A stretch of 42,891 nucleotides of DNA from Candidatus Thorarchaeota archaeon (GTDB lineage Archaea > Asgardarchaeota > Thorarchaeia > Thorarchaeales > Thorarchaeaceae). The notes below the pieces were generated by a model that saw only the letters and a program-made list of their open reading frames with translations, ran no database searches and had not been told where the DNA came from. Shown in pieces: positions 24,913 to 42,141 of this stretch; position 1 is the stretch's first letter; every line of letters starts with the position of its first letter. The DNA is taken from assembly GCA_048882325.1 (NCBI GenBank), contig JBHLRS010000027.1, positions 1-42,891 of the forward strand, in the 5' to 3' direction. The position numbers and the translations under genes are program-made.

Positions 24913-26274
24913 TTACCACCAGAGAAGCATCACATGGTTGCTAGTTCCTTCGTCTAACACTGTACTGCTGTCACCTTTTGTAAGGACCCAGCAGTCTGAT
25001 GTCCCAGGGCCCAGCCAGATCGCCGCAATATCGGCTTCCAAATCAGCAATGTCATTCAGGACCAGAATCCACCCACTAACTGTATCTCCGAAAATGCCAG
25101 TGAGAATACCTGCCTCTCCACTTCCACTAATGGTGTTACTGACAAGTCGTAGGTCCTGCACACCATTACCAACGATGCCCCAAGCATAAGAACCGCCCAA
25201 TACAATATCATTCTGATAAGCAAAGACTGATACTCCCTCTACCTCTCCCGGCACAGCAAGCCAGTCGTCAATCCAGATCCCATTCGAGTAACCAGGCACT
25301 TCGACATGATTGTGATGGATATAAGCCCGACCTGGTTCTAAGCTAGAAGCGTACATACCATTTGCCAGATAGATACCGTACCAACCACCCTCTCCGACCG
25401 AAACATCGTTGAATGCCACCTCCGCTTGTGAGTTGTAGAGGTCATAGATCTCAGGACCTATCATGGTATTGACGTATGTGTTTCGTACAATCTGAATACG
25501 CGAATCCACTGATTGGCCAGGTACGACACTTGAGCCTAGGCTGTTCTCGAAGTGACATCCCTCAATCACAAACGTGCCACTGATCCTCTCATTCGCGAAG
25601 GTATCAATATTGAAGCGACCCTGAATGAATAGTCCATTCTGGATGCTAAAGCCGAATACACCATAAATCTCACCGATGTCACCCAAGAACTCAAGATTCT
25701 TGGCAGTCACGTCGAAGTGGGATACGGTCTCTTCGTTCCACTCATCGACGACTTTACCCGTGATTTCGATTGGGTTCATAGCCCTGAAACCACCAGCATA
25801 TTCTGGCAACCACAATTCAGTCGGGTATTCTACCGTCACTGTGAAGTCGCTCAGCTGTATCTTGTATGGGTGTCTATGGGTGCTGGTGGAATACTCATCC
25901 TGATAAAACATTAACATTCGTGGATTCTCAAAACCAAGATTGGCTGGGTCCTGCAATGGAAAGTTATCTATACTATGAAGAACTGTCTTTCCAGTCCCAG
26001 AACCTTTGAATGTCCCATCAAAGTTGACACCAACGAGTGTTTCACACAGATAGAAGTCACCTTCTTCAAGAAGGACTGTTCCCTTACCTGCGGCAATCAC
26101 GTCATCTATCGCTTGTTGAATATTCGCAGTGTCTGTTACTCCAGTCGTGTCACCTGATGGAGCGACTACGAATGCATGGCTTCCGTAATGTCTCCCGGTC
26201 ACTGGACCAACGATGGACATACAAAATGCAAAACACAGAGCCACCGCTAGTATTCTCATTCTGTTTTGTTCCAA
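24913..26274 (-). CDS. Secreted right-handed parallel beta-helix protein
   Basis: DT..IQ.AID, GTV.L..G.F, G.G...TVL, repeated ..N.I.. strands; start probably TTG 26274 (GGAGGAG SD) or ATG 26259. Confidence 0.85.
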   Translation of the reverse strand: MEQNRMRILAVALCFAFCMSIVGPVTGRHYGSHAFVVAPSGDTTGVTDTANIQQAIDDVIAAGKGTVLLEEGDFYLCETLVGVNFDGTFKGSGTGKTVLHSIDNFPLQDPANLGFENPRMLMFYQDEYSTSTHRHPYKIQLSDFTVTVEYPTELWLPEYAGGFRAMNPIEITGKVVDEWNEETVSHFDVTAKNLEFLGDIGEIYGVFGFSIQNGLFIQGRFNIDTFANERISGTFVIEGCHFENSLGSSVVPGQSVDSRIQIVRNTYVNTMIGPEIYDLYNSQAEVAFNDVSVGEGGWYGIYLANGMYASSLEPGRAYIHHNHVEVPGYSNGIWIDDWLAVPGEVEGVSVFAYQNDIVLGGSYAWGIVGNGVQDLRLVSNTISGSGEAGILTGIFGDTVSGWILVLNDIADLEADIAAIWLGPGTSDCWVLTKGDSSTVLDEGTSNHVMLLWW

Positions 26275-26341
26275 ATTCTCTCCTCCTGCATCCCTACTCG
26301 AAACCGTAGGGAGTACCACATGTTGCTCTACAGTAGTCATC

Positions 26342-26427
26342 GTCAATCAAGACTCGCCTCATACAACGAGTCGTAACCCCGGGGCCAAAGTTAGTCTTCG
26401 TAACCTTTATTGTGTAATATTATTACA
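26342..26427 (-). promoter_or_regulatory. Conserved 5' leader element, copy 1
   Basis: 64/86 manual identity to 38860-38945; includes TGTAATA-T-TATTACA. Confidence 0.75.
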
Positions 26428-26552
26428 TGTCATCCTGTAACTTAAGTGTCTCTGAAAACCAAAATAGTCTTTGAACAAAAGCGTGTTGAGATTGGCGCTG
26501 TTGATAATCTTAAAGAGCGACCAAATCTCCAACGCGAACTGGCTGACACATA

Positions 26553-26951
26553 ATGACTGGGAGAGTAGGACCTTCCATTGAATTGGAATCACCCCTAGGG
26601 ATTGCCAACATGGTCCAGGTATTGTCCGCGATACTGATAATTGGCGGAACACTCTATTGTGGACCACCGAACTCTGAGATGCTCTGGTTAATCGTTGTAG
26701 GAGTTCTCTATACAATTGGGTTTGTCCAACTGTTAATGACAAGATATCTTATGCAGAGAGAAAAGAGCAGCATTGAAGGTGCGATCATTGTTGCAATGCT
26801 AGCGATGCTTTTCTCTTTTGTAGATGCACTCGTTTGGGGTATCGTGATTGGCCAATTGATACCTACAGTGCTCTACTTGATTATCTTTGCCATCAATGTA
26901 CCAAACACCAGCGTTCTTAGGAAGCAAAGGAATCTACTGGGAGCTTTCTAG
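26553..26951 (+). CDS. Four-TM membrane protein
   Basis: Four hydrophobic helices. Confidence 0.7.
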   Translation: MTGRVGPSIELESPLGIANMVQVLSAILIIGGTLYCGPPNSEMLWLIVVGVLYTIGFVQLLMTRYLMQREKSSIEGAIIVAMLAMLFSFVDALVWGIVIGQLIPTVLYLIIFAINVPNTSVLRKQRNLLGAF

Positions 26952-26988: not shown

Positions 26989-27330
26989 CTACTCGCAACA
27001 GCTTGTGCCACCAGCGTTGCTCTCTGATACGGGCCCAACAGCTGTATCCTGACAACCACTCTGACGTTTCCTTGCCTGATTCCAGACACAACCACAACCT
27101 AGATTCATAACTGTGATAGCCCCACCTAGACAATTCTTGGCACATGCAGTGCAATTTGTGCAGTCTTCTGGTCTAGCAACGACAGCTGGCCCTTCCGCGG
27201 GGAGTTCCCACACATTGAATCCACATACCTCAAGACAATTGCCGCACCTGTTGCACTTTGTTGGGTCATAAGAAAAATCAGTCCGTCCCGAGTCCGAGAT
27301 TGTTGTCACAAGTGTCATTTTCTTCACCAT
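26989..27330 (-). CDS. hgcB: HgcB-like 2x[4Fe-4S] ferredoxin
   Basis: CNRCGNCLEVC, CTNCTACAKNC, GCGC, C-terminal CC; adjoins the hgcA-like gene; start may be 27318. Confidence 0.7.
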   Translation of the reverse strand: MVKKMTLVTTISDSGRTDFSYDPTKCNRCGNCLEVCGFNVWELPAEGPAVVARPEDCTNCTACAKNCLGGAITVMNLGCGCVWNQARKRQSGCQDTAVGPVSESNAGGTSCCE

Positions 27331-29087
27331 CCCATAAGGGCAACAAGGATATTGAATCCTACTATCATGACAATCCCTGCTCCAAGTGTGTATAACATAT
27401 AGGGGTATTCTCGTTCAATCACCTTTGGATCACTCACTGATGTCATTCCAGACCAGTCCATCGTCAAAGTTACAGCTATGACGAACTGAGCTATTGACCA
27501 AACTACATACTCTGTCCAATGTGCACTAAGTACGAACATAAAGACAAGTGCTATAGGAAGCGTGATAGCTGCCAACCCAAGCCCACGCCTATAGAACGAG
27601 TTTCCCTTAGACGGAAGGATTGGAAAGATTAGTCCAAGGACAAATGCAGTTCCAAATAGCGCTGCGAAAATCTGAATGATCAGTAACAAGATACCTAAAC
27701 TAATGGAGAGAACTTGCATGTAGAAGGTTTGGATGAATAATGCGGCTATTATGTCAATCAGGAAGATTGACCCCAAGAGGATTGCAAGTGGGCGACCAAG
27801 TAGCACAGCTAGTAGAAATGGTATGTGAGCGACTGTCTGTTCCATTCTCTCTCTGAGGTTGAAGGTCACAGAGGCCATCTCTCGAGGTTTGGGTTTTGGT
27901 TTCCCAAGCTCCATCCATTCATTTAGGTCCTGAATTCTGACTGGCCCATATCGAGCCCTGAAACCTGTCCTCCTGCGAATCTCTCTTGTGTCCATTCCAG
28001 CTGCAGAGAGTTGAGGCAGGATTATCTCTCGATGAGTGACCAATTCATCGAGGTGTGTCAGATGTATCATTTCGACAACATCTTTTGTATCAAAGTGAAT
28101 CCCACGAGCGGCACACCAGACGTTAATCCCATTTGTGTCACAGACCAACACCCATGCGTCTAACTTGTCTTTGTTCAGAGCTCGCATCACAGTGTAGTAG
28201 GTCAATTCATAATTCGCTGTGACAACAACTGGACTGTCTTCTGTGGGGGCGCCAGCGCGATACAACCCGGGAGCAATCGGAATTCCCCTCCATCCTCCTG
28301 TTAGATGATTGTACCATATTCGTGTTCTGGCTTTGGGACCTTCAAACTTCCTCTTTCTATCCTCATACTTGGATAGGTGTCTTCTCTGTCCGATCTTCCC
28401 AAGTACAAGGGTTATCTCAGAACCATAGTTCTCTGTTTCAGTTATGTCAAACCCCGATGACATAACTATTGACTCAAGATCATCCACTGGTGGTTGGAAT
28501 CTTCTCCTGACGAGTTTCTCAGCCTTTGCTCTTTGCCTCCAAAAGGTTCTTTGTTCATCCCGCAATCGCGGAAGTGTTTCGGAGGCAAAAGCGATGATTC
28601 CATTTGGGTTCAGCACAGAATGAATACGTTGAAGAAAGAGTTCACGTTGATGTGGTTTCAACTCAGACAAAAGAAAGGTGCTCACAACGAAATCGTATTT
28701 CATATTCAATTGAGGGACATCAGCGTTAGTCGACGCATGAGCCGACCCTGATAGATTACCACACAGAATCTCAAGGAAATCAAGCACATCAGCCACAAAG
28801 AAGGAAGGACGTTTCTTCAATAGGACTACAGACTTCTCAGCGGTCTTTATCATTTCCAGACTTGAGTCAACACCTACTGCATCAGCACCCTTTCTAGATG
28901 CTTCGAAGACAAATGACCCAGGACCGCAACCAAGATCAAGTACGTTCATACCGGGTTTAACAAGTTCTAGAATCTTCGCACGGATGATGACTTGTCGACC
29001 ATCTAAAACTTTGTTGAACTCTTCATCATAGGTTTCTGGTGTCTTCTCCAATGCAGCCATGAACGCTACTGCCATCTTGTTCATCAC
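27324..29087 (-). CDS. hgcA: Class I SAM methyltransferase fused to an HgcA-like corrinoid membrane protein
   Basis: VLDLGCGPG; then PGLY..G.P...SPV.VTANY, DTNGINVWCAARG, HR.IILPQL.A.G, YGPVR..D and about five TM helices. Confidence 0.8.
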   Translation of the reverse strand: MMNKMAVAFMAALEKTPETYDEEFNKVLDGRQVIIRAKILELVKPGMNVLDLGCGPGSFVFEASRKGADAVGVDSSLEMIKTAEKSVVLLKKRPSFFVADVLDFLEILCGNLSGSAHASTNADVPQLNMKYDFVVSTFLLSELKPHQRELFLQRIHSVLNPNGIIAFASETLPRLRDEQRTFWRQRAKAEKLVRRRFQPPVDDLESIVMSSGFDITETENYGSEITLVLGKIGQRRHLSKYEDRKRKFEGPKARTRIWYNHLTGGWRGIPIAPGLYRAGAPTEDSPVVVTANYELTYYTVMRALNKDKLDAWVLVCDTNGINVWCAARGIHFDTKDVVEMIHLTHLDELVTHREIILPQLSAAGMDTREIRRRTGFRARYGPVRIQDLNEWMELGKPKPKPREMASVTFNLRERMEQTVAHIPFLLAVLLGRPLAILLGSIFLIDIIAALFIQTFYMQVLSISLGILLLIIQIFAALFGTAFVLGLIFPILPSKGNSFYRRGLGLAAITLPIALVFMFVLSAHWTEYVVWSIAQFVIAVTLTMDWSGMTSVSDPKVIEREYPYMLYTLGAGIVMIVGFNILVALMGW

Positions 29088-29150: not shown

Positions 29151-29834
29151 TCACCCGAAAGTGCCTGCTAATCGACGAAAGAGTATCGAGGCAACTAGTA
29201 AATCAATCATAAAACTAAGATTTCTGAACACCAGGAATGGGGGTTCAATTATCGCAATCACTCCTAAACCCACATAGAATCCCAAGAGAATCACAAAGAT
29301 CACTTTTGAAGTCCGGGCTTCAAGAGGGTCACTGAGGGAGAGCATGAGCAACACAATGAACGTGAATCCAGCCATGTAGCTCGATATGTCCTTCACGTAC
29401 ATGACAATCCAAAATGACGAAAAAACATTGTCAGCTGGCACCCAACCGTTTGGGACTCCATTCAAGAGGGCTACTTGGAACGCATTTTCTAGGAGGTCCG
29501 AAACGAATGTCAAGCTCCCGAGTGCAAAGGCAACCTTGGAGAGAAATTCCTCCCTCTGTCTTGTGAGGAGATAGAAACCGTAGAAGATAGCGAGGTATCC
29601 AATCATGAAGAAGTTATCAAAGACCAGACTCACGAGTTTGATGCTGATGTCCATCGGAGTGGCGCTAACCAAGTCGGAAATCACGTCACCAGTCGGTCGC
29701 AGCTCGTAGAGATTTCCACCTCCCGGATTAAGGAAAATTGTAGCAACCATTCCGAGAGTCATGAGGAAGCCTAGGAAGATAAAGACAGACGCCACCTTTA
29801 GTCGTGGACCCATTGTGCTTGTCATCAATCTCAC
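29151..29834 (-). CDS. Multi-pass membrane protein
   Basis: About six TM helices; SDLLEN motif. Confidence 0.75.
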   Translation of the reverse strand: MRLMTSTMGPRLKVASVFIFLGFLMTLGMVATIFLNPGGGNLYELRPTGDVISDLVSATPMDISIKLVSLVFDNFFMIGYLAIFYGFYLLTRQREEFLSKVAFALGSLTFVSDLLENAFQVALLNGVPNGWVPADNVFSSFWIVMYVKDISSYMAGFTFIVLLMLSLSDPLEARTSKVIFVILLGFYVGLGVIAIIEPPFLVFRNLSFMIDLLVASILFRRLAGTFG

Positions 29835-29911: not shown

Positions 29912-32900
29912 TCACATGGTTAGAATCACATCAATGAGTGCCTGTGCGAGAGCTATGAGTGCGTTTCCTTCCTCCTCAGATAGCTTTCCTGAGTTGATCA
30001 TTGAATATATCTGAGAGATGAGGTCGTTGAGCTTTTGAGTTGCTTGTGTCAGCTTGCCTTTGTCCATGAGGTCACGTGCAGCATCAAGTTTCCTTAGCAG
30101 TGGGCTAATGTCCTTACTAGTCAAGACATCTTCTTCGACCAGTTCCTCCAGATCCGAATCAATGACTTCACTGACTTCTTGAGGTGTATTGAAGGTGAGA
30201 GGATCTGTGAAGTAGAAACGCCATTCGTCGCCGTCAATGAAGTAGTCTCCATCTGAATCAGCGTCATTGGGATCTGTTCCGATTTCAAGCTCACCATAAT
30301 ATGAGAGACCATCATTATCGAAATCACCAGCTACGAGTGGATACATGTCATAGCCTTCACTTGGCCAAGGAATATCTGTGTCTCCGATTCCGTCTCGATC
30401 AAAGTCCACTCCGATGTAGTCAGACCAGATATTGCCCTCGAGTAATTCAGGATTATACCAGTCATTCCCGGATGGTGAGTAGAGATCAGTGGCTTGAATA
30501 GTGTTCCATATGATGCTGTTCCAATAGATCAGATTACCTTCTGATTCAAACAGGAAGATTCCATTTCCGCACAATGTAATGTTGTTCTGAGTCAGATTGT
30601 TGTAATGCGAGAGATTGAGATAGATCCCAAAGTAGGTATTATCATAACAGGTATTGTTGATCAGCCAGTTGTAAATAGAAGCATTCAGGAATATACCCAC
30701 ATTATTCGAAGTGAATGTGTTATCCCGAATTTCGTTCCCGATACTTCCCCCTCTAATGGAAATACCATATCCTAGATTTCCATAGCAGTCGTTCGCTCTG
30801 ACAATATTGCCATCTCCATTCCAGAAATGAATTCCCGCGTATCCATTGTTGTACACGGTGTTATGCTCAATCGTATTGTCGGTAGCTCCAAGTCCAACAC
30901 CAATGCCATTGACATCATTGTCATAGCACCAGTTGTCCGAAACAGTGTTCAAGTTACTATCTCCGACTACAACGATTCCTTCAAAGTCATTCGAGAAACA
31001 ATCGTTACCCGTTACAGTGTTTGAGTCAGAGTTTTGTATGAAGATACCTTGATAATTGTCCCAGCAGTCGTTCTCAAGAATATCGTTGTCACTGCTAGTA
31101 CCTCTCACAGCGATTCCCCAATAATTCCCATAGCAGTCATTGTCTACAATGGTGTTGTCATATCCCAAGAATATGTGGATTCCCGTACCTTCATCGCCTA
31201 GATTGTTGTACACAAAGTTATGCACAATTTGGTTATTATAGGCTCCGACCCCAATACCTATTCCATTCCCAAGAAGGCCATCATTGTCAAAACAGTAGTT
31301 ATCTGTCACGACACACTGTGTACTATCTAATAACACAGCAATACCTTCCCAGTCATTGGAATAACAATGGTTGTCTGTTATTGTCACAGCAAAACTATAG
31401 TCCACACGGATACCATAGCAGTTGTCAAAACAGTAATTGTTTGTCACCTCTGCATATTGAACATTGGAGAGCCAGATCCCTGCATATGCTTCAATAAATG
31501 GTATCTCACCCAGTCCACCTTCAGGTACTGAGGTGCCTGTCACAGTACAATCACGAATGATGAAATACGTGTCAACAATGTTCAGAACCTTGATGCAGCT
31601 TGCATCAGCTCCGTTGACATCGATGTAGTAGTCTTCAATGATGATTGGATCTCCATACTCTCCTGAACCAAGCCAACCATGCCAAGCATCCATAGCTCTG
31701 AGTTGCGCATCACCATCGATGTAGAACGGACCTGGATCGAGGGGATCAGTTAAGATTGTGAAAATCTCATCATAGTCACTCCAACCATCCATATCTGTGT
31801 CTGGATTGTACGGATCTGTGCCATAGATGTTTCTCTCTTCATAGTTCCATAGCCCATCTCCGTCATCATCAGGGACAATGATATCAGTATAGCCTACACT
31901 ATGGAGTAATTCTCTGGCGAGTATCACATCGCGATAAGCATCTGAAACTGCATCATATCCCGGAAACATTGGAAGGGTTGGGGTATGAACCAAATGGGGG
32001 TTGAGGCCTTCTAATCCAGCAGTGAGCATCAATTGTCTCCACATAACTAGATCTACTGCTTGGCGAACCTCCCGTATGGTAAGATGTTCATTACCAAGAT
32101 TTGACAGCGCGACAGCCCACCCAGTTGTATCAACACCAGATGCCCAATCGTCGCGACCCCACATTATCCAGAAAGGCTGATCTTCAGCCCAAATCGCCTG
32201 CAACTGACGGATGATGTCAAGGGCTTCACTGCTTAAATCCGGCGGATTCGGCCAGTTTGCATTCCAATCAATGTTGAGTGCGAGCAATGCTGCCACTAGG
32301 TCTTCATAATCCGGATTGTAGTATCCTTCATTGAAGTTACTGTCTATTGAAGCAAAATCTAACCCTGAGATGTATCCATTAGAGCCTAATCCAAAGATTG
32401 CAACATCAAAGCCAACATAGAGAGAGATACTTTCATCCCATATTGGAGGACCTGCAGATGTTGGACGCTCAAGCCCATAGTCTTCAGGATTAGTCATAGA
32501 GTAAATCCATTGTTGCCAAGGCAATGCGTGAATAACTAACTCAATACCGATACAACGAAGGTCTCTGGCCAAATTCTCTGCACGCATCATTGCGATTTCA
32601 GATTCCACAGCCACTAGAAGGTGCAGAGTAAACAATGGTTGTCCTGAAATTGTAGGCCATGGAGGATCAACAACAAGAGGATCAGTAAAGACCCAATAGA
32701 CCTCGTCACCATCTCGCCATAGATCACCATCTGTGTCCCACTCCATTGGATGAGTAAAGAAGGTGTAGAGTTCTTCAGGATCTAAAATTCCGTCAAAATC
32801 ACTGTCCGCCTCCAATGGATTTGTCGGGACACCCTGTGGGTTGTTGCCAAAGATCTCATCAACGTCGCTGATCCCGTCTGAGTCCCCGTCAACGCTAGTT

Positions 32901-35900
32901 GGGTCGGAGAAGTAGTATCGCCACTCCATTCCATCTGAGAGTGAATCACCGTCTGTGTCTGGATTCTCAGGATCTGTACCAATGATTAGCTCGCCGGTGT
33001 CTGAGATTCCATCGCCATCACTATCTATCACAAGCGGGTACATGTCAAGACCATGCCATGGGATGTCTGTGTCCCCAATCCCATCTAAGTCAAGGTCCAC
33101 TCCGATATAGTCTGACCAGATATTGCCCTCGAGAAGGTCTGGATGATACCAGAAGTTTCCATTCGGTGAGTCAATGTCAGTAGCCTGGTTGACGTTATCA
33201 ATAATCGAATTGTGATAAATGGTGTTTGATGAACTTCCCATCAGATAGATCCCATATTCATTATCAGAACAGATGTTTCCAGCCACCTCATTGTCATCTG
33301 CTGAGTTCAGAGTGATACCTCGTCGCATATTAGTACTGAAAGTGTTTCCAATTATATCGTTGTTATCAGACAGGTATAGGTAAATTCCATCATATTGATT
33401 TGTATTGCAGGTGTTCCCGATGAGCTCATTCTCTGTTGCACCATTGAGATAGATGCCTACTAGATTCACTGTGCATGTGTTGTCTGAAATTGTGTTCGAG
33501 TGCGAATCGACAAGGTAGATTCCAAACCAACCATTTCCGTCACATGTATTATCTGCGATTGAGTTCAAAGTAGAAGTTTCAAGAGAGATTCCAGAATCAC
33601 TGTTGCCATTGCAAGTGTTCCCAACCAGTATATTCCAATGTGAATCATCGAGTTGAATACCAAATTCCAGATTCCCGGAGCATATATTTCCAATTATATG
33701 ATTGCCAGAAGACTCACCCAATCCGATTCCAACATCATTCCCTGAACATGTATTCCAATAAAGAATATTTGAATTCGACTCGATAAGGGCAATTCCAGTC
33801 TCACCGTTACCGTCACAGGAGTTCTCGAAAATCACGTTCATATCTGAGAACTCTAATCGGACACCTGTGTAGAAATTATAGTTGCATATGTTCCTGGTGA
33901 CGTTATTCTCGTGTGAGTTGCTGAGGAATATACCAAAGAGGGAATTATTGTTGCAGGTGTTCCCAACCACTGCATTACCCGGACCTGAGCTCTCGAGTTG
34001 GATGCCATGTTCACCATTACCAAAACAGGTGTTTCCACTGATCAGGTTGCCATTTGAGACAATGAGCTTGATACCGTTGTAGAAGTTGTCATTGCACGTG
34101 CTCCCAATTATATGGCCATAATGAGAATTATAGAGGAAGATGCCAAACTGATCATTCTCATTGCAGATATTATCAATCAGTATGTGATTTGTCGAGTCTC
34201 CTACATCTATACCAGCGAATCCGTTGTAGTTGCATGTGTTCTCCCGCACCTCAACAGCATGAGAGTTCAATAACCAGATACCTCGGTAAACATTGCTATT
34301 GCAGGTGTTTTCAATGAGGTCATTCCCGGTTGTGTCGTGGACGTAGATTCCGATTTCGTTGTAGTTGCATGTGTTTTGTTCAACAGTGTTTCCGGGACCT
34401 CGAAGCTCAATCCCATAGTTGTTATACTTACAGGTGTTATCTCGGATTGTGTTTCCATTTGCCGATGGTGACGTAACAATACCAAAGCCATTGTTGTTAC
34501 ATTCATTCCTCAGGACAGTGCAGCCATCCGAGTTGTAACCTAGACCTATTCCAGCATACGCATTGTCATAACAGACATTGTCAACAATGGTGTTCCAAGA
34601 GCTTCCTAATCCCAGAATTATTCCGCTGTAATCATGGTCGTAACATAGATTATCAGAGATCGTGTTCCAATTACTGTCCCAACCAAGGGCAATGCCCTCC
34701 CAGGTATTCCCATAACAGGTATTCTCAGAAATTAGACAGTCTGAAGATTGATTGAGTGTGATTCCCCAGACGTTTCCGAAACAGATGTTATCGATTATCT
34801 TGGCCCCGACAACGTTGTACAGGTATATCCCTGCACGACCGTCTGTTGGTAAAGTCCCAACTGTTGCACCCGTGAGGGTACATCCACGAACCATGACATA
34901 GCTAGAAACGATGTTCCGAATCTCGATACAGCTTTTGTCAGCACCTTCAGCATCGAAATAGTAGTTCTCAATGATGAACGGGTCACCCTCAGCACCAGTA
35001 CCAGACCATCCATATAGCTCCGCTTGTGCCGCTAAGTCTTCATCACCATCGATATACAATGACTCCAGAGTGAATGCATACTCTGATGTGTTGAATACCA
35101 TCCCACCAACCAAAATGTTTCCTATGTAGAGGTCCACCTGGAAGAATCGTCCAAGCTCAAACTCCTGAATAAGAGGATCAATATAGAGTGTGACTACTTC
35201 ACTTGTCCCTTGGATAATACGTTGTGAGGAGTATTGTAGTATCTCGGCATACCAAACATCTGTATGTTCTCCCAGTTGTCTGACCTTGAGATTGACATAA
35301 GCAGTGCTGTTTATCAGTTGACCAACCAAGAATGAAATCTCACCTGGTGATTTCATCTCAATAATTTCAACATTCTCATAGCCCACATTATTAGTCTGGT
35401 CCTCGGGAGTTTCTCGGGAGGGGTCAATCTGTACCTTCAAACATCCGCTGATGAGTGTGGGCGTGAAGGTAAAGGACGCAATCGCAGATTCACCATGGTC
35501 AATTTGAACATAGTCTTTGTATCCTACCATATCAGTAGCAATTCCACCTCCAAATGGCACCTCCCAAAGAGTTACTTCAACGGGATCATTATCTGGAACA
35601 TCATTGCCTCTGTTATACACTGTGACATCGATTCGATTCAGTTCATTCTGTTTCAGTCGTAACTTCTCTTTCCATACCCCTGGGCTAATCTCACGATAAA
35701 TCTTGATGTCAGGGTTGTCCCATAACAGACCTCTTCCATCCCACGTGCTTGAATCATCTTGAGAGTATAGATACATATCTGGCGTATCTGTTGAGGTGCG
35801 ACGCTGGAAGCAGCTCACAGCATCAGCAGAGTATGAGTTGGAACCAACCCATATGTTCATGTATCTGGTATCCCCGAGGTCGTCTATTGGATACCATATG

Positions 35901-38785
35901 TAAGAGCCAGCCCCAGTCGGATAAGCAGGATGAAGAGTTTCCCATCCATTTTGTCCCTCATATTTAATGGTGACATAGGCCCCTGGAAAATTAGAGAATT
36001 TGATTTCTAGGGTGTCACCATCTATGCCTCCTACTGCTGAAACTAATACATCTCCTGCATGAGGATTGAGCTCAACTCTTGTGCCAAAGCTAGTAACAGG
36101 AATCTCATCGATGTGGGGTGCGAAGTTCCTTTTTGTCACAGTCACAGAAACATCAGATCCAATGGCGGGATCTATATTGAACAGAGCCTGTCCGTTACTA
36201 TCAGTATATTCAACTGCATAGACATACTGTCCTTGATGAAGACAGACTTTCGCAAACTTGACCGGTTTATTGGTGTCATCATTTTTCACTGTCACAGCAA
36301 AAACCTGAGGGTCAGTGGATCCAATTGACTCTGGATAAGAAACATCGAGAATTGTTGGTGTAGACGTCCAGAGCTTGGTCTCAGGGTCTCCGAAGAGATG
36401 ATATTCCTCGAAGGTTGTCTGAGCAACCTCAAAATTATCATGGAGTGTCCCCCATTGTTTCGCAGCGTGTAATTTGCCAAGTAATAACGCCCCTCCCATT
36501 TCATATACTGGTTGGTTCTCAGACTCCAAAAATCCTGGCCAGAATGATTGGATGAGTCCATCCATAAGATATGAGCTAATTATTGAATAAGCAAGACGTG
36601 AAGACGAGATTGCTGCAACAGCTCCATCTTCATCTCGTGTGATTTCCTCCGCAAAGGACTCCTTGGCGTACTCCTCAAATGGATTAACATGATTATTATA
36701 AATATCATCTACGTCCACCAGCCATCCCCCTGAATAATAACGTGTGTACATATCCATATGTTCCTGATCAGTTTCTCCATCAAACCATCCACTGTCACAT
36801 GCCATACTGATAACTAGGGGAGTGAATCCTGCGTCGCCGGTATTCAAGAGACCTAAGATATCGTAGTTTTGATTATCAGTATCAAAGTAAGGGGTAAGCC
36901 ATCCGTTAGTATCATCTCTATCACCTCTATCCCAACCATTATCATCAGTGTCAAACCTGTAAATCATGTTCTCACTCCCGCCATGACCATAGTAGAGAAC
37001 AAGGAATTTTCCATCGTTAATAGCATTCGAGATTTCGGTTAATGATTGGCCCCAAGCTATGTCATCATGATATGCATCGAACCAAAAGAAAGTAGGATCA
37101 TTAATGTATGTCAGCCAATCGGAAACCAAATCCGAACCAACATGTTCCAAAACATCATGGAACTTCTGAGGCATATGATGCTCCCAAGTGCTTGAATATA
37201 GCGTTTCTATTTCTTTTCCAAAGGAGTCTTCAACATAGTCTCTGATTCTTTCCAAAGTATATACAAACGGGAAACTCGGATCCTCATTTCCAGAATGCTC
37301 GGTGTCTTCGAATTTTGCATTGGAGAGAATACCTTCGTAGAATGAATCCGTCAGAGGTGGGGATGTTTCATAGAATATGATCTTGTCAACTGCAGTTTCA
37401 GCTTCTGCTGGATTATCAACTGATATGCGACCGTAGATCATATCTGGGAAATACTCCGCCCCTTCAATATCGAAATAACCCAGATCTGACGCGATATCTG
37501 GTCCAGAAACACCTGTGTTCGGATCATACATTTTGTAATTAGTAAATAGCCGCCTGAATTCCGCTTGATGTTGTAGATTATAAGTAGTTGGAATCATCTC
37601 GACATCGCCTAGAAATAAGACATAGGTCGGTGCAGGATTCCAAGTGTTGTAGGCTCGTTCTATCGCATATTCGATAAGAGCTGAATCTGGTGAAACTATC
37701 ATGAATGCAGCAGGAACTCCTTTCTTTGTCTTCCAAGCCGCCAAATCAAGAGCATATTGTTCCAGTTCAGCAACTGTAATTACCAAGTACTCGACGCCTT
37801 CAACGTTTTCCTCACCAGCACTTATGGAATAAGTATTATTGTCTCTTGCCACTAGCGGTCCAGTTGGTATATCAACTGGATTATAATCCAAGAGAATATT
37901 GGACATGATGTTTTCAAAGGCTTCAGAGCGTAATTCCTCCCGAATTGGTTCTATCTGGGCGGGGCTGCTGTAGTCAGCCTTCACCAACATCTGGGAGTGC
38001 GCAATCGTCCTGTCCTTGTCAGGGTTGTATTGGATAGGGAAGAAGTTAATGGATGATAATCTATGACCCCTCATTATCAGAGGTGTTGCAGGATTTCCTC
38101 CTTCGATACTTGTCCTAACTGCTGGGAAGTACGCGTTGTTGGTATATGCTGGACCTTCTTCTGTTGGGAGAATTGCGTCAACCTGTGTATCCTCTGACCG
38201 ATTCCCTTCAAATATCATCATGACCTGTGGAGGCGAGGCCGGACGTATATTGTAGGTCTCGGTGATGATTGTTGATGAGTTTGTGATAGCACTCATGGTA
38301 ACAGCAATATCGTGTGGTATTTCTACTAGCTCTGAGAGCAGGGGAACCATTGGAGCTCCAGGCTCACGACTATATGTGGCTCCAGGCATCTCCAAGAAAT
38401 CGTAAGTATTGCCCTCTATCGTGACAGTCCTCTTCCAGAACCCATAGAAATCAGCCACAATCGTGATACCTGTTGTATCGGAAGTTGTCACATGCACTTC
38501 AGCAGGTGTACCAGCGGGAGTTGCACCCCCATCAAGAGACACCCATACTCCACCCTGAGCCAGGACCGTTCTCACCTCACAAGGACGGACTTCATATGGT
38601 TCATTCACAAAACCGAAGTCGCTATCCCTCTCAAGACTTGACTCACCTACAATGTCAGGACCTGTGTCATTAGTAACATCGATCATCGAAACTGATGATG
38701 CTGATGAGATTACAAACATGGCTGCAACAGCAACCACAACAATATTCAGAAGTACCTTCTTTCGAGTCCAGCTGACCCTTTTCAT
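29912..38785 (-). CDS. Giant secreted protein: C25 propeptide + gingipain-type C25 peptidase, Ig-like domains, two NosD-type beta-helices, TSP3-like Ca-binding repeats, SBP5-like insert, helical C-terminal domain
   Basis: PG.P.VP, WK..KG, YVLFLGD, GRIS, YYGHGG, MACDSG, LFGDP; GI.L..S..N.I..N.C..N repeats; DSDGDG..D..E; ATG 38785 follows GGAGGAG. Confidence 0.9.
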   Translation of the reverse strand: MKRVSWTRKKVLLNIVVVAVAAMFVISSASSVSMIDVTNDTGPDIVGESSLERDSDFGFVNEPYEVRPCEVRTVLAQGGVWVSLDGGATPAGTPAEVHVTTSDTTGITIVADFYGFWKRTVTIEGNTYDFLEMPGATYSREPGAPMVPLLSELVEIPHDIAVTMSAITNSSTIITETYNIRPASPPQVMMIFEGNRSEDTQVDAILPTEEGPAYTNNAYFPAVRTSIEGGNPATPLIMRGHRLSSINFFPIQYNPDKDRTIAHSQMLVKADYSSPAQIEPIREELRSEAFENIMSNILLDYNPVDIPTGPLVARDNNTYSISAGEENVEGVEYLVITVAELEQYALDLAAWKTKKGVPAAFMIVSPDSALIEYAIERAYNTWNPAPTYVLFLGDVEMIPTTYNLQHQAEFRRLFTNYKMYDPNTGVSGPDIASDLGYFDIEGAEYFPDMIYGRISVDNPAEAETAVDKIIFYETSPPLTDSFYEGILSNAKFEDTEHSGNEDPSFPFVYTLERIRDYVEDSFGKEIETLYSSTWEHHMPQKFHDVLEHVGSDLVSDWLTYINDPTFFWFDAYHDDIAWGQSLTEISNAINDGKFLVLYYGHGGSENMIYRFDTDDNGWDRGDRDDTNGWLTPYFDTDNQNYDILGLLNTGDAGFTPLVISMACDSGWFDGETDQEHMDMYTRYYSGGWLVDVDDIYNNHVNPFEEYAKESFAEEITRDEDGAVAAISSSRLAYSIISSYLMDGLIQSFWPGFLESENQPVYEMGGALLLGKLHAAKQWGTLHDNFEVAQTTFEEYHLFGDPETKLWTSTPTILDVSYPESIGSTDPQVFAVTVKNDDTNKPVKFAKVCLHQGQYVYAVEYTDSNGQALFNIDPAIGSDVSVTVTKRNFAPHIDEIPVTSFGTRVELNPHAGDVLVSAVGGIDGDTLEIKFSNFPGAYVTIKYEGQNGWETLHPAYPTGAGSYIWYPIDDLGDTRYMNIWVGSNSYSADAVSCFQRRTSTDTPDMYLYSQDDSSTWDGRGLLWDNPDIKIYREISPGVWKEKLRLKQNELNRIDVTVYNRGNDVPDNDPVEVTLWEVPFGGGIATDMVGYKDYVQIDHGESAIASFTFTPTLISGCLKVQIDPSRETPEDQTNNVGYENVEIIEMKSPGEISFLVGQLINSTAYVNLKVRQLGEHTDVWYAEILQYSSQRIIQGTSEVVTLYIDPLIQEFELGRFFQVDLYIGNILVGGMVFNTSEYAFTLESLYIDGDEDLAAQAELYGWSGTGAEGDPFIIENYYFDAEGADKSCIEIRNIVSSYVMVRGCTLTGATVGTLPTDGRAGIYLYNVVGAKIIDNICFGNVWGITLNQSSDCLISENTCYGNTWEGIALGWDSNWNTISDNLCYDHDYSGIILGLGSSWNTIVDNVCYDNAYAGIGLGYNSDGCTVLRNECNNNGFGIVTSPSANGNTIRDNTCKYNNYGIELRGPGNTVEQNTCNYNEIGIYVHDTTGNDLIENTCNSNVYRGIWLLNSHAVEVRENTCNYNGFAGIDVGDSTNHILIDNICNENDQFGIFLYNSHYGHIIGSTCNDNFYNGIKLIVSNGNLISGNTCFGNGEHGIQLESSGPGNAVVGNTCNNNSLFGIFLSNSHENNVTRNICNYNFYTGVRLEFSDMNVIFENSCDGNGETGIALIESNSNILYWNTCSGNDVGIGLGESSGNHIIGNICSGNLEFGIQLDDSHWNILVGNTCNGNSDSGISLETSTLNSIADNTCDGNGWFGIYLVDSHSNTISDNTCTVNLVGIYLNGATENELIGNTCNTNQYDGIYLYLSDNNDIIGNTFSTNMRRGITLNSADDNEVAGNICSDNEYGIYLMGSSSNTIYHNSIIDNVNQATDIDSPNGNFWYHPDLLEGNIWSDYIGVDLDLDGIGDTDIPWHGLDMYPLVIDSDGDGISDTGELIIGTDPENPDTDGDSLSDGMEWRYYFSDPTSVDGDSDGISDVDEIFGNNPQGVPTNPLEADSDFDGILDPEELYTFFTHPMEWDTDGDLWRDGDEVYWVFTDPLVVDPPWPTISGQPLFTLHLLVAVESEIAMMRAENLARDLRCIGIELVIHALPWQQWIYSMTNPEDYGLERPTSAGPPIWDESISLYVGFDVAIFGLGSNGYISGLDFASIDSNFNEGYYNPDYEDLVAALLALNIDWNANWPNPPDLSSEALDIIRQLQAIWAEDQPFWIMWGRDDWASGVDTTGWAVALSNLGNEHLTIREVRQAVDLVMWRQLMLTAGLEGLNPHLVHTPTLPMFPGYDAVSDAYRDVILARELLHSVGYTDIIVPDDDGDGLWNYEERNIYGTDPYNPDTDMDGWSDYDEIFTILTDPLDPGPFYIDGDAQLRAMDAWHGWLGSGEYGDPIIIEDYYIDVNGADASCIKVLNIVDTYFIIRDCTVTGTSVPEGGLGEIPFIEAYAGIWLSNVQYAEVTNNYCFDNCYGIRVDYSFAVTITDNHCYSNDWEGIAVLLDSTQCVVTDNYCFDNDGLLGNGIGIGVGAYNNQIVHNFVYNNLGDEGTGIHIFLGYDNTIVDNDCYGNYWGIAVRGTSSDNDILENDCWDNYQGIFIQNSDSNTVTGNDCFSNDFEGIVVVGDSNLNTVSDNWCYDNDVNGIGVGLGATDNTIEHNTVYNNGYAGIHFWNGDGNIVRANDCYGNLGYGISIRGGSIGNEIRDNTFTSNNVGIFLNASIYNWLINNTCYDNTYFGIYLNLSHYNNLTQNNITLCGNGIFLFESEGNLIYWNSIIWNTIQATDLYSPSGNDWYNPELLEGNIWSDYIGVDFDRDGIGDTDIPWPSEGYDMYPLVAGDFDNDGLSYYGELEIGTDPNDADSDGDYFIDGDEWRFYFTDPLTFNTPQEVSEVIDSDLEELVEEDVLTSKDISPLLRKLDAARDLMDKGKLTQATQKLNDLISQIYSMINSGKLSEEEGNALIALAQALIDVILTM

Positions 38786-38859
38786 TAGATGTCCTCTCCT
38801 CCATCTTCCCCACACATGAAACGAGGGGCACGCTACACAGATGTCATTATGCAACCCTT

Positions 38860-40845: not shown

Positions 40846-42141
40846 TTATAGAAAGATGGTATCGCCATAAAAGCCAGAGCCAAAAACTACCGGTCCCAAC
40901 GAAAGACCCATGCCGTCCCCATCGTCATCATAGAGAGGAGTTTCAGGCCTACTGTCATGGGCAGCCGCATAGATGAATGCCTCACGCATAGAGATCATTC
41001 CATCAGTAATGTAATCCGCGTTAGCTGGACCAATACCTCCAGGCAACTGTATACCGATTAAAGCGGACATGAAGTGATAGACAAACTCGTCCCATTGACC
41101 TTCAGTGTCACACCCATAGGAACTCTCTGCAACTCCTGCTGCTGTCATTATCACTCTGTTTGAAGCACTGATATATTGAATGAACTTGCCAGACACACAT
41201 TGTTCCATCACAATAATCATGTGATCACACGTAATCGAATCAAGCCAGTCAGAAACCTGAGCGTGCGTAAGTGCACCACTAGAATCCATTGGACCCCATA
41301 CACTAATCCCGCTACTGCCTCCATGGTTCGTCGTGTAGAAGAAGAGTGTGTCCCGGTATCCCATCTGATCACTCAGAGTAGCAAAAACAGTGTCAAGCGA
41401 CGTGTGAGTTGCAGGATAGTCCACAGGCGTATATGGATCCTCTCCTACGCCATCCTTGTAAACGACATAGATGTTCTGTGACTGGTAACCATGCATCTGT
41501 AGGATGAAATACATGTAGATGATGTCATTCCAGTATCGGTAGTACGCCTTCTCAGGCTTTATCCCACCGCTATAAAGGACTGCATACTTCTCAGCAGAGG
41601 GATCATACTGAAATGGTTTGTATTCATTGAGAATGTCCGTGTCGAGAATCTGATCCTTAAAGAAACCTTGAACAACCGAATCCACGGGTCGCGCAGTATA
41701 CTGTGAATATCTCACTCCTAGGACACCATCACTTTCATCTGCCCACTCACCAGTCCCTTTCACATCACATCGTTGCCCAACATAGTCTTCCATAGCCTGA
41801 GGTGGTTCCCCAGTCACAAGTATGTAATTGTCAGGTTGGAGTGAGTTATTCAAAAACGACCAAAGACTCTCCACCAGCATCGGAAATCCAGCAGAAATAA
41901 CATAGAAGCCAGTAATCGTAATCGTCTTACCAATGTATGCCTCTGGATTACTTGTAACATCTCCAATCCCCATGGGAACATTTTCGAGAGGAACTGAAGG
42001 CCTATAGAAAATGAAGTAGTATAACGTCCCTAAATTAGTACCAATCAGAATTACAATCAGCGCAATCAATGTGACTGGCCGCTTTGAACCTGTTTTACCC
42101 TTTTTACTCTTCGACACCGTTGTAACCTCTTGTTGAATCAT
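40846..42141 (-). CDS. Membrane-anchored clan CD cysteine peptidase (C13 legumain/caspase-like) with OB-like domain
   Basis: YAVL.SGG, RYWND...Y..L...G, TTNHGG, MEQCVSG, SYG; start may be GTG 42117. Confidence 0.85.
   Translation of the reverse strand: MIQQEVTTVSKSKKGKTGSKRPVTLIALIVILIGTNLGTLYYFIFYRPSVPLENVPMGIGDVTSNPEAYIGKTITITGFYVISAGFPMLVESLWSFLNNSLQPDNYILVTGEPPQAMEDYVGQRCDVKGTGEWADESDGVLGVRYSQYTARPVDSVVQGFFKDQILDTDILNEYKPFQYDPSAEKYAVLYSGGIKPEKAYYRYWNDIIYMYFILQMHGYQSQNIYVVYKDGVGEDPYTPVDYPATHTSLDTVFATLSDQMGYRDTLFFYTTNHGGSSGISVWGPMDSSGALTHAQVSDWLDSITCDHMIIVMEQCVSGKFIQYISASNRVIMTAAGVAESSYGCDTEGQWDEFVYHFMSALIGIQLPGGIGPANADYITDGMISMREAFIYAAAHDSRPETPLYDDDGDGMGLSLGPVVFGSGFYGDTIFL

Follow-up and report, generated by a model that had tools for sequence, protein, structure and literature searches.

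The window analysed here, 42,891 nucleotides of contig JBHLRS010000027.1 (assembly GCA_048882325.1) of a Candidatus Thorarchaeota archaeon, encodes a protein in which a class I S-adenosylmethionine (SAM) methyltransferase (MT) domain of the CpaM type is fused to an HgcA-like corrinoid membrane protein, and directly after it an HgcB-like ferredoxin. We read the locus as a two-gene, three-module, membrane-anchored relay that would pass a methyl group from SAM via cobalt to a thiophilic acceptor, with a probability of roughly 0.55. By profile scores and phylogeny, the fusion protein is a member of a paralogous HgcAB-like/CpaM assemblage outside the mercury methylase clade. The HgcA family and its association with CpaM (NF043040) are already curated in NCBIfam, in agreement with the mention of stand-alone methyltransferases near HgcAB-like genes in the initial annotation; what is new here is the variant with the MT domain and the HgcA-like part (A) in one chain (MT-A) and the HgcB-like part (B) separate. 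Literature searches on the fusion, on CpaM and on fused hgcAB found no description of an MT-HgcA-like fusion.

The open frame runs uninterrupted on the minus strand (27324..29087) for 587 codons from a GTG. The start is most likely the ATG at 29075 (MAVAFM...), because the orthologs and the genome profile search begin there; the gene would then occupy 27324..29075 and encode 583 aa plus stop, the alternative GTG at 29087 giving a product of 587 aa. Residue numbers are counted from this GTG. The class I (Rossmann) SAM methyltransferase domain comprises residues 5–240 (28368..29075, minus), with Pfam class I methyltransferase models (Methyltransf_23/25/31/11/12) covering residues 35–217 and the SAM-binding motif I, VLDLGCGPG, at residues 49–57 (28917..28943, minus). 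The HgcA/CFeSP-type corrinoid-binding domain follows at residues 269–400 (27888..28283, minus; Pfam CdhD at residues 273–366), and then a transmembrane domain with five helices predicted from the AlphaFold2 secondary structure (residues 411–585; 27327..27887, minus). The cap helix, NVWCAARG, spans residues 322–329 (28101..28124, minus; AAC GTC TGG TGT GCC GCT CGT GGG), the exact position and residues agreeing with the initial annotation. It retains the Cys that is the cobalt ligand in HgcA and carries RG in place of the canonical GK. The NCBIfam HgcA model aligns with residues 270–576, and the membrane domain is homologous to that of HgcA, with P489, P492, G502, G547 and E560 common to canonical HgcA.

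The AlphaFold2 whole-chain model, built on an alignment of 105 homologs, has a mean pLDDT (predicted local distance difference test) of 91.2 and a pTM (predicted template modelling score) of 0.86. It consists of a Rossmann methyltransferase, a corrinoid-type α/β domain and five long helices (411–585), and contains a lineage-specific, low-confidence insertion in the MT domain at approximately residues 104–128. Pfam, NCBIfam and the model agree that one open reading frame (ORF) joins a class I SAM methyltransferase to an HgcA-like domain with transmembrane helices, as first annotated. Foldseek matched the MT domain with CmoA, CysG(N-16) and ChlM; the top Foldseek match overall, 9a0b_A, is a published integrative HgcAB model, not an experimental structure. 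The PDB sequence search found no solved HgcA and matched only the corrinoid domains of the corrinoid iron-sulfur protein (CFeSP; large subunits 4djd_C and 2h9a_A, E ~1e-9) and generic methyltransferases.

The second gene (26989..27330, minus) has 7 nt in common with the fusion gene; its product is a 2x[4Fe-4S] ferredoxin of 113 aa. Its two clusters are of the CxxCxxCxxxC type (CNRCGNCLEVC and CTNCTACAKNC). The post-cluster Cys and the C-terminal vicinal Cys pair of HgcB are both present (GCGCVW and ...SCCE), the second cluster reads CTNCTAC and not C(M/I)ECGAC, and the score against HgcB (NF040864) is 44.7 bits, below the cut-off of 99. Outside the window's own sublineage, each of the 6 distinct Thor loci examined has a ferredoxin gene after the fusion gene, and so have 15 of 15 Loki-type species loci. 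The partner ferredoxins of both groups all keep GCGCxW and nearly all the C-terminal CC. Asgard fusion-partner ferredoxins are of their own type, CT(N/E)C(T/S)AC followed by GCGC(V/I/L)W and, in nearly every case, by CC at the C-terminus, in contrast to canonical HgcB with C(M/I)ECGAC, GVGCA and CC. The description of the fusion protein as a self-contained machine does not hold, since the separate ferredoxin encoded by the next gene is needed too.

The fusion architecture is far beyond chance. About 60 full-length orthologs (565–590 aa, 47–77% identity) were found in independent NCBI, JGI, ENA and Logan assemblies annotated as Thorarchaeota, Sifarchaeia or Promethearchaeota, and one of them comes from a closed chromosome of 3.16 Mb. 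When 87 Thorarchaeia genomes were searched with a profile, an uninterrupted frame of 577–597 aa was present in 20 genomes and in the window's own, and there was one truncated copy as well; the distribution is patchy by genus. Roughly 30 further clusters with the same fusion at ~30% identity were present in a library clustered at 50% identity. Placed by species-representative genomes, these distant fusions belong to Loki-, Hermod- and Promethearchaeia-type Asgard archaea, to Chloroflexota/Anaerolineae, to Poribacteria and to a metagenome-assembled genome of Desulfobacteraceae. The source genome is a draft of 89 contigs, which would favour reading the fusion as an assembly or gene-calling artefact or a decaying pseudogene. 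This reading is already refuted by the comparative data: the frame recurs in other genomes of the class and on the closed chromosome, the catalytic motifs are invariant, and the junction between the two halves is 65% identical among Thor-type orthologs. The fusion is genuine.

Both catalytic halves look functional and are under constraint. In 105 fusion proteins, G53, G55 and G57 of motif I and N322, V323, W324 and C325 of the cap helix are invariant, and D74, D132, S141, E142 and E170 are each kept in at least 90%. The corrinoid domain is the most conserved part of the protein (75% identity among Thor-type proteins, 46% among distant fusions). The sole conserved Cys of the MT domain is C54, inside motif I.

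The fusion protein falls below the cut-off of each family model to which it is related. CpaM (NF043040, 'corrinoid protein-associated methyltransferase') is the best family for the N-terminal domain, with 111.2 bits in two stretches (cut-off 180), and the domain fits that family in being a class I SAM methyltransferase with a physical link, here an in-frame fusion, to a corrinoid protein of the HgcAB-like kind. For the corrinoid and membrane part, the best-scoring NCBIfam model is the HgcAB-like fusion NF043039 (214 bits, cut-off 285; only profile positions 11–281 of 350), ahead of HgcA, NF040863 (193.5 bits, cut-off 275). The NF043039/CpaM family holds the same three modules as the window locus; it is defined as an A-B fusion in one polypeptide with a separate MT, whereas the window has an MT-A fusion with B as a separate gene, and the scores against both models mark the Thor branch as diverged. 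The relatives P0073, P0124 and P0101 pass the CpaM cut-off at 211–250 bits; P0101 (631 aa) is a CpaM-HgcA-HgcB triple fusion that exceeds the CpaM and HgcAB-like cut-offs alike.

With HgcA/HgcB of the Pseudodesulfovibrio mercurii ND132 type (NF040863/NF040864), the locus shares the corrinoid-binding domain followed by a multi-helix transmembrane domain, the N-V-W-C of the cap, the partner 2x[4Fe-4S] ferredoxin with post-cluster Cys and C-terminal CC, frequent ArsR/ars neighbours and SAM as the likely methyl source. It differs by the N-terminal MT domain, by RG in the cap, by replaced, mainly charged conserved residues, by its separate clade and by a ferredoxin with CTNCTAC and GCGC versus C(M/I)ECGAC and GVGC. 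The canonical cap is N(V/I)WCA(A/G)GK, and its final G and K are present in every one of 77 canonical HgcA sequences. Among 359 proteins retrieved, NVWCAAGK occurs in 166 of 204 stand-alone HgcA-type proteins, and an N-terminal MT domain is absent from all 166, in line with the earlier statement that canonical HgcA has no such domain. No cap ends in GK among the 125 MT-fused proteins, and 98 of them have NVWCAARG. The window protein retains 38 of the 48 positions that are at least 90% conserved in the 77 canonical sequences. The replaced positions are mostly charged (R266W, D298Y, R301M, G328R, K329G and E336D), and the canonical Arg just N-terminal of R266 has no counterpart. As purified HgcAB uses SAM directly, the replaced, mostly charged residues are candidates for a donor site that the fused MT domain would have superseded.

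Trees were built on the HgcA part, and CdhE of the source genome served as outgroup (FastTree, 133 rows; IQ-TREE LG+C20, 78 rows). Both recover the canonical GK sequences as a monophyletic clade with 100% support that excludes the window protein. The Thor clade of the window groups with the Loki-type 'AARG' fusion clade (89–94% support); the IQ-TREE tree does not resolve the root, nor the order in which the AARG fusions, the canonical sequences and the AB/MT-A-B group branched. Thor and Loki sequences have been placed before in a 'fused hgcAB' subtree, in which the methyltransferase was not mentioned (Lin et al., PMC10083202). By its NCBIfam scores, its cap and its place in the trees, the protein is not a canonical HgcA.

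On the HgcA-domain tree, several arrangements are intermixed: MT-A with separate B, MT-A-B, A-B, and A alone or with a separate MT. The MT-A label needs 9 changes, and at least 4–5 of these changes are forced by well-supported branches. Three forms occur within Thorarchaeia, namely MT-A with a separate ferredoxin, triple fusions of ~650 aa, and split pairs of CpaM and HgcA-like genes. In the source genome itself, contig 38 carries a 243-aa CpaM-like gene followed at once by an HgcA-like gene with the cap INAWCGSRG. That the three modules have been joined and separated repeatedly is an argument for their acting together. The initial annotation had proposed that the MT domain serves the corrinoid and had named mercury among the conceivable acceptors. 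The first part is strengthened by the repeated, independent rearrangements; mercury as the native substrate appears unlikely, because the protein belongs to the paralogous assemblage.

The two genes of the contig 38 split pair (L004:706-2109) lie in one frame and are parted by a TGA, followed by a TTG start (...GCG AGC TGA TTG AAG...). The same one-stop in-frame CpaM/HgcA-like junction is present in at least 10 other Thorarchaeia genomes, via TGA, TAA or TAG; it may stem from a recent fission, from translational coupling or from read-through. As many as three paralogous systems of this CpaM/HgcA-like kind (MT-A, MT-A-B and split pairs) are found per Thorarchaeia genome (L104, L105), which suggests substrate diversification. 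The ferredoxin part of the ~650-aa MT-A-B triple fusions of Thorarchaeia has no CC tail; the two such proteins examined differ in this from the window ferredoxin.

Contact between the two halves was modelled by predicting the MT domain and the HgcA part as split chains with SAM included. The interface score (ipSAE) was 0.45, as compared to 0.00 for the best of 3 controls; in the tool's calibration, 58 of 80 solved complexes passed, as did 2 of 110 mismatched pairs, and values of 0.60 or below came from only 7 of the 80 solved complexes, yet from both passing mismatches. At least 70% of the contacts agree between runs, and the partner pLDDT is at least 80. The prediction lends weak backing to a contact between the MT domain and the HgcA part.

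In the proposed relay, the corrinoid domain would bind a cobamide, to which the cap-helix Cys325 would supply the lower axial ligand, and the HgcB-like ferredoxin would reduce the cobalt to Co(I), both as expected from the family. The fused CpaM-type domain would bind SAM and methylate Co(I) to CH3-Co(III), from which the methyl group could pass to an acceptor close to the membrane domain. Most plausibly this would be a thiophilic metal(loid), for example As(III), or some other soft ion, with the free ferredoxin cysteines (GCGC and the C-terminal CC) presenting it. That SAM is the reported methyl donor of HgcAB, as noted in the initial annotation, is supported by the literature: it is the demonstrated donor of canonical HgcAB and is used directly by the purified protein (PMC11588087).

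The neighbourhood of the pair in other Asgard archaea is partly of the ars type. An ArsR/SmtB regulator lies 2–5 nt upstream of the fusion gene, or abuts it, in 6 distinct Thor loci that include all 5 species representatives, and all 6 regulators carry ACVCE(F/I)Q. In Loki-type relatives, the gene pair is often located inside an ars-like cluster with ACR3, an ArsC-like reductase and ArsR; the ACR3 arsenite efflux gene is directly upstream in 3–4 loci, one scoring 285.6 bits (above the TIGR00832 cut-off of 282.8). In the window and its closest relatives (69–76% identity), the order is giant surface protein, membrane protein of 224–227 aa, fusion gene, ferredoxin and methionyl-tRNA synthetase (MetRS). 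A search of the source genome for a Thor-type ArsR gave only a weak 28-bit match on another contig and no close copy. The window's sublineage has lost the ArsR regulator that heads the operon in most Thorarchaeia.

Several points weigh against the relay. No characterised class I Rossmann methyltransferase is known to act on Co(I) bound to a protein, and NCBIfam grades CpaM only as a 'hypothetical equivalog'. The MT domain has no conserved cysteines able to bind a metalloid, and a true ArsM (308 bits, cut-off 263) and an ACR3 (293.9 bits) are already encoded elsewhere in the source genome, on contigs 2 and 22 (L096, L095). The ars-type context, ArsR included, is absent from the window and its closest relatives. 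ArsR, Acr3 and ArsC also surround canonical hgcA at comparable rates, with no specific enrichment near the fusion, so the context suggests soft metal(loid)s as a theme of the whole family and singles out no one substrate; ars genes near canonical hgcA loci have been noted in the literature (PMC7438021). Finally, canonical HgcAB uses SAM without a separate methyltransferase (PMC11588087), and a dedicated SAM domain is therefore not obviously needed to load the cobalt.

Three other functions were weighed against the relay. The MT domain could be a repair module as in methionine synthase (MetH), re-methylating oxidised Co(II) together with the ferredoxin, while in turnover the methyl group would come from a methyl-pterin or a methylated substrate and go to an organic acceptor. 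MetH reactivation chemistry does combine SAM, a low-potential reductant and cobalamin, the genome has a Wood-Ljungdahl/acetyl-CoA decarbonylase/synthase (ACDS) system with CdhD/E that would make methyl-pterins available, and one distant relative is found near B12-binding and MeaB genes. However, the reactivation domain of MetH has a fold other than that of the class I MT domain here, and in the approximately 40 loci examined no pterin-binding or MtaA/MtbA-type methyltransferase is conserved beside the pair, the ferredoxin being the only constant neighbour. We consider a repair role improbable. A genuine mercury methylase, that is, a divergent HgcAB with a fused donor module that methylates Hg(II) in vivo, is a little less probable still. 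The HgcA-type corrinoid domain with its cap Cys, the five-helix membrane domain, the 38 retained HgcA positions and the ferredoxin cysteines that HgcB needs would all suit it, as would SAM as the donor of HgcAB (PMC11588087). It is opposed by the position outside the fully supported canonical clade in both trees, by an NF040863 score below the cut-off, by a cap without the GK that all 77 canonical sequences have and by CTNCTAC in the ferredoxin. Moreover, Pyrococcus furiosus and Methanococcoides methylutens, cultured organisms with a non-canonical fused hgcAB, produced no methylmercury (PMC5893877, PMC10083202).

The corrinoid module might otherwise carry out non-methyl chemistry such as the reductive dehalogenation of halomethanes, with the MT domain acting on a separate small molecule or on the product. 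Corrinoid and ferredoxin are the standard dehalogenation kit, and heterologously expressed HgcAB has been reported to dechlorinate CCl4 (2026 preprint, 10.64898/2026.04.26.720869). The preprint, which is not peer reviewed, deals with no HgcAB other than the canonical one, genes of the dehalogenase type are absent nearby, and the repeated fusion of the MT domain to the corrinoid protein, or its placement beside it, would be left unexplained; this function is very unlikely. The SAM-to-cobalt relay is the reading we retain. A wider claim, which we put forward only tentatively and regard as doubtful, is that the MT-HgcA-like/ferredoxin pairs of anaerobes (Asgard archaea, Chloroflexota) are metal(loid) methyltransferases of a hitherto unrecognised class, bound to the membrane, dependent on SAM and a cobamide and distinct from ArsM and HgcAB.

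Two further known systems share single modules with the fusion protein. The large subunit of CFeSP (AcsC/CdhE) of the Wood-Ljungdahl pathway has a homologous corrinoid-binding Rossmann domain. Unlike the window protein, it carries a [4Fe-4S] domain at its N-terminus as well as a TIM barrel, lacks both a membrane domain and a Cys ligand, and receives its methyl group from methyl-tetrahydrofolate through the methyltransferase MeTr; the source genome's own CdhD/E are encoded on contig 6. ArsM, the As(III) S-adenosylmethionine methyltransferase, has the class I SAM methyltransferase fold in common with the MT domain, and relatives of the window protein occur in ars-type neighbourhoods. Membership of ArsM was rejected on the lack of conserved As(III)-binding Cys residues in the MT domain; the match to NF040539, an ArsM-type model for an arsinothricin-biosynthesis methyltransferase, is weak (24.6 bits, far below the cut-off).

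The MT-HgcA-like fusion bears on the native function of the HgcA family and on the route by which SAM reaches the cobalt, a question that extends to canonical HgcAB. Its repeated evolution speaks independently, from the genomic side, for a methylation of the corrinoid by SAM in this family. If the wider claim above holds, no class I methyltransferase before the fused CpaM domain would have been shown to methylate a Co(I) corrinoid bound to a protein, and the contrast with canonical HgcA would identify the mainly charged residues that the latter uses in place of the CpaM domain. With all three modules on two genes, the locus is a compact target for biochemistry. By the fusion one can also recognise the many sequences that hgcA surveys with a motif filter would drop for want of GK or miscount as mercury methylators, and it hints that sediment Asgard archaea may methylate metal(loid)s by a cobamide route.

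The remaining genes of the neighbourhood have looser ties to the pair. A multi-pass membrane protein of 227 aa and no known family is encoded 64 nt upstream of the fusion gene (29151..29834, minus); it is conserved in the closest relatives only and may or may not be part of the system. Downstream of the pair in 5–6 Loki-type loci, two small ORFs of no known family (L012:7065-7412, 115 aa, and L012:8190-8513, 107 aa) may be further components. Between the ferredoxin and MetRS genes of the window are two ORFs at 24913-26346 (477 aa) and 26407-26742 (111 aa), both minus, with no Pfam or NCBIfam match and no counterpart in the related loci fetched. The 2980-aa ORF at 29912-38854 (minus), syntenic in close relatives, combines a Peptidase_C25 (gingipain-type) domain and propeptide with many NosD/right-handed β-helix repeats, TSP3 repeats and a C-terminal FIMAH domain, and is presumably a surface protease or adhesin. 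At 40846-42141 (minus), a 431-aa ORF carries a Peptidase_C13 (legumain-like) domain.

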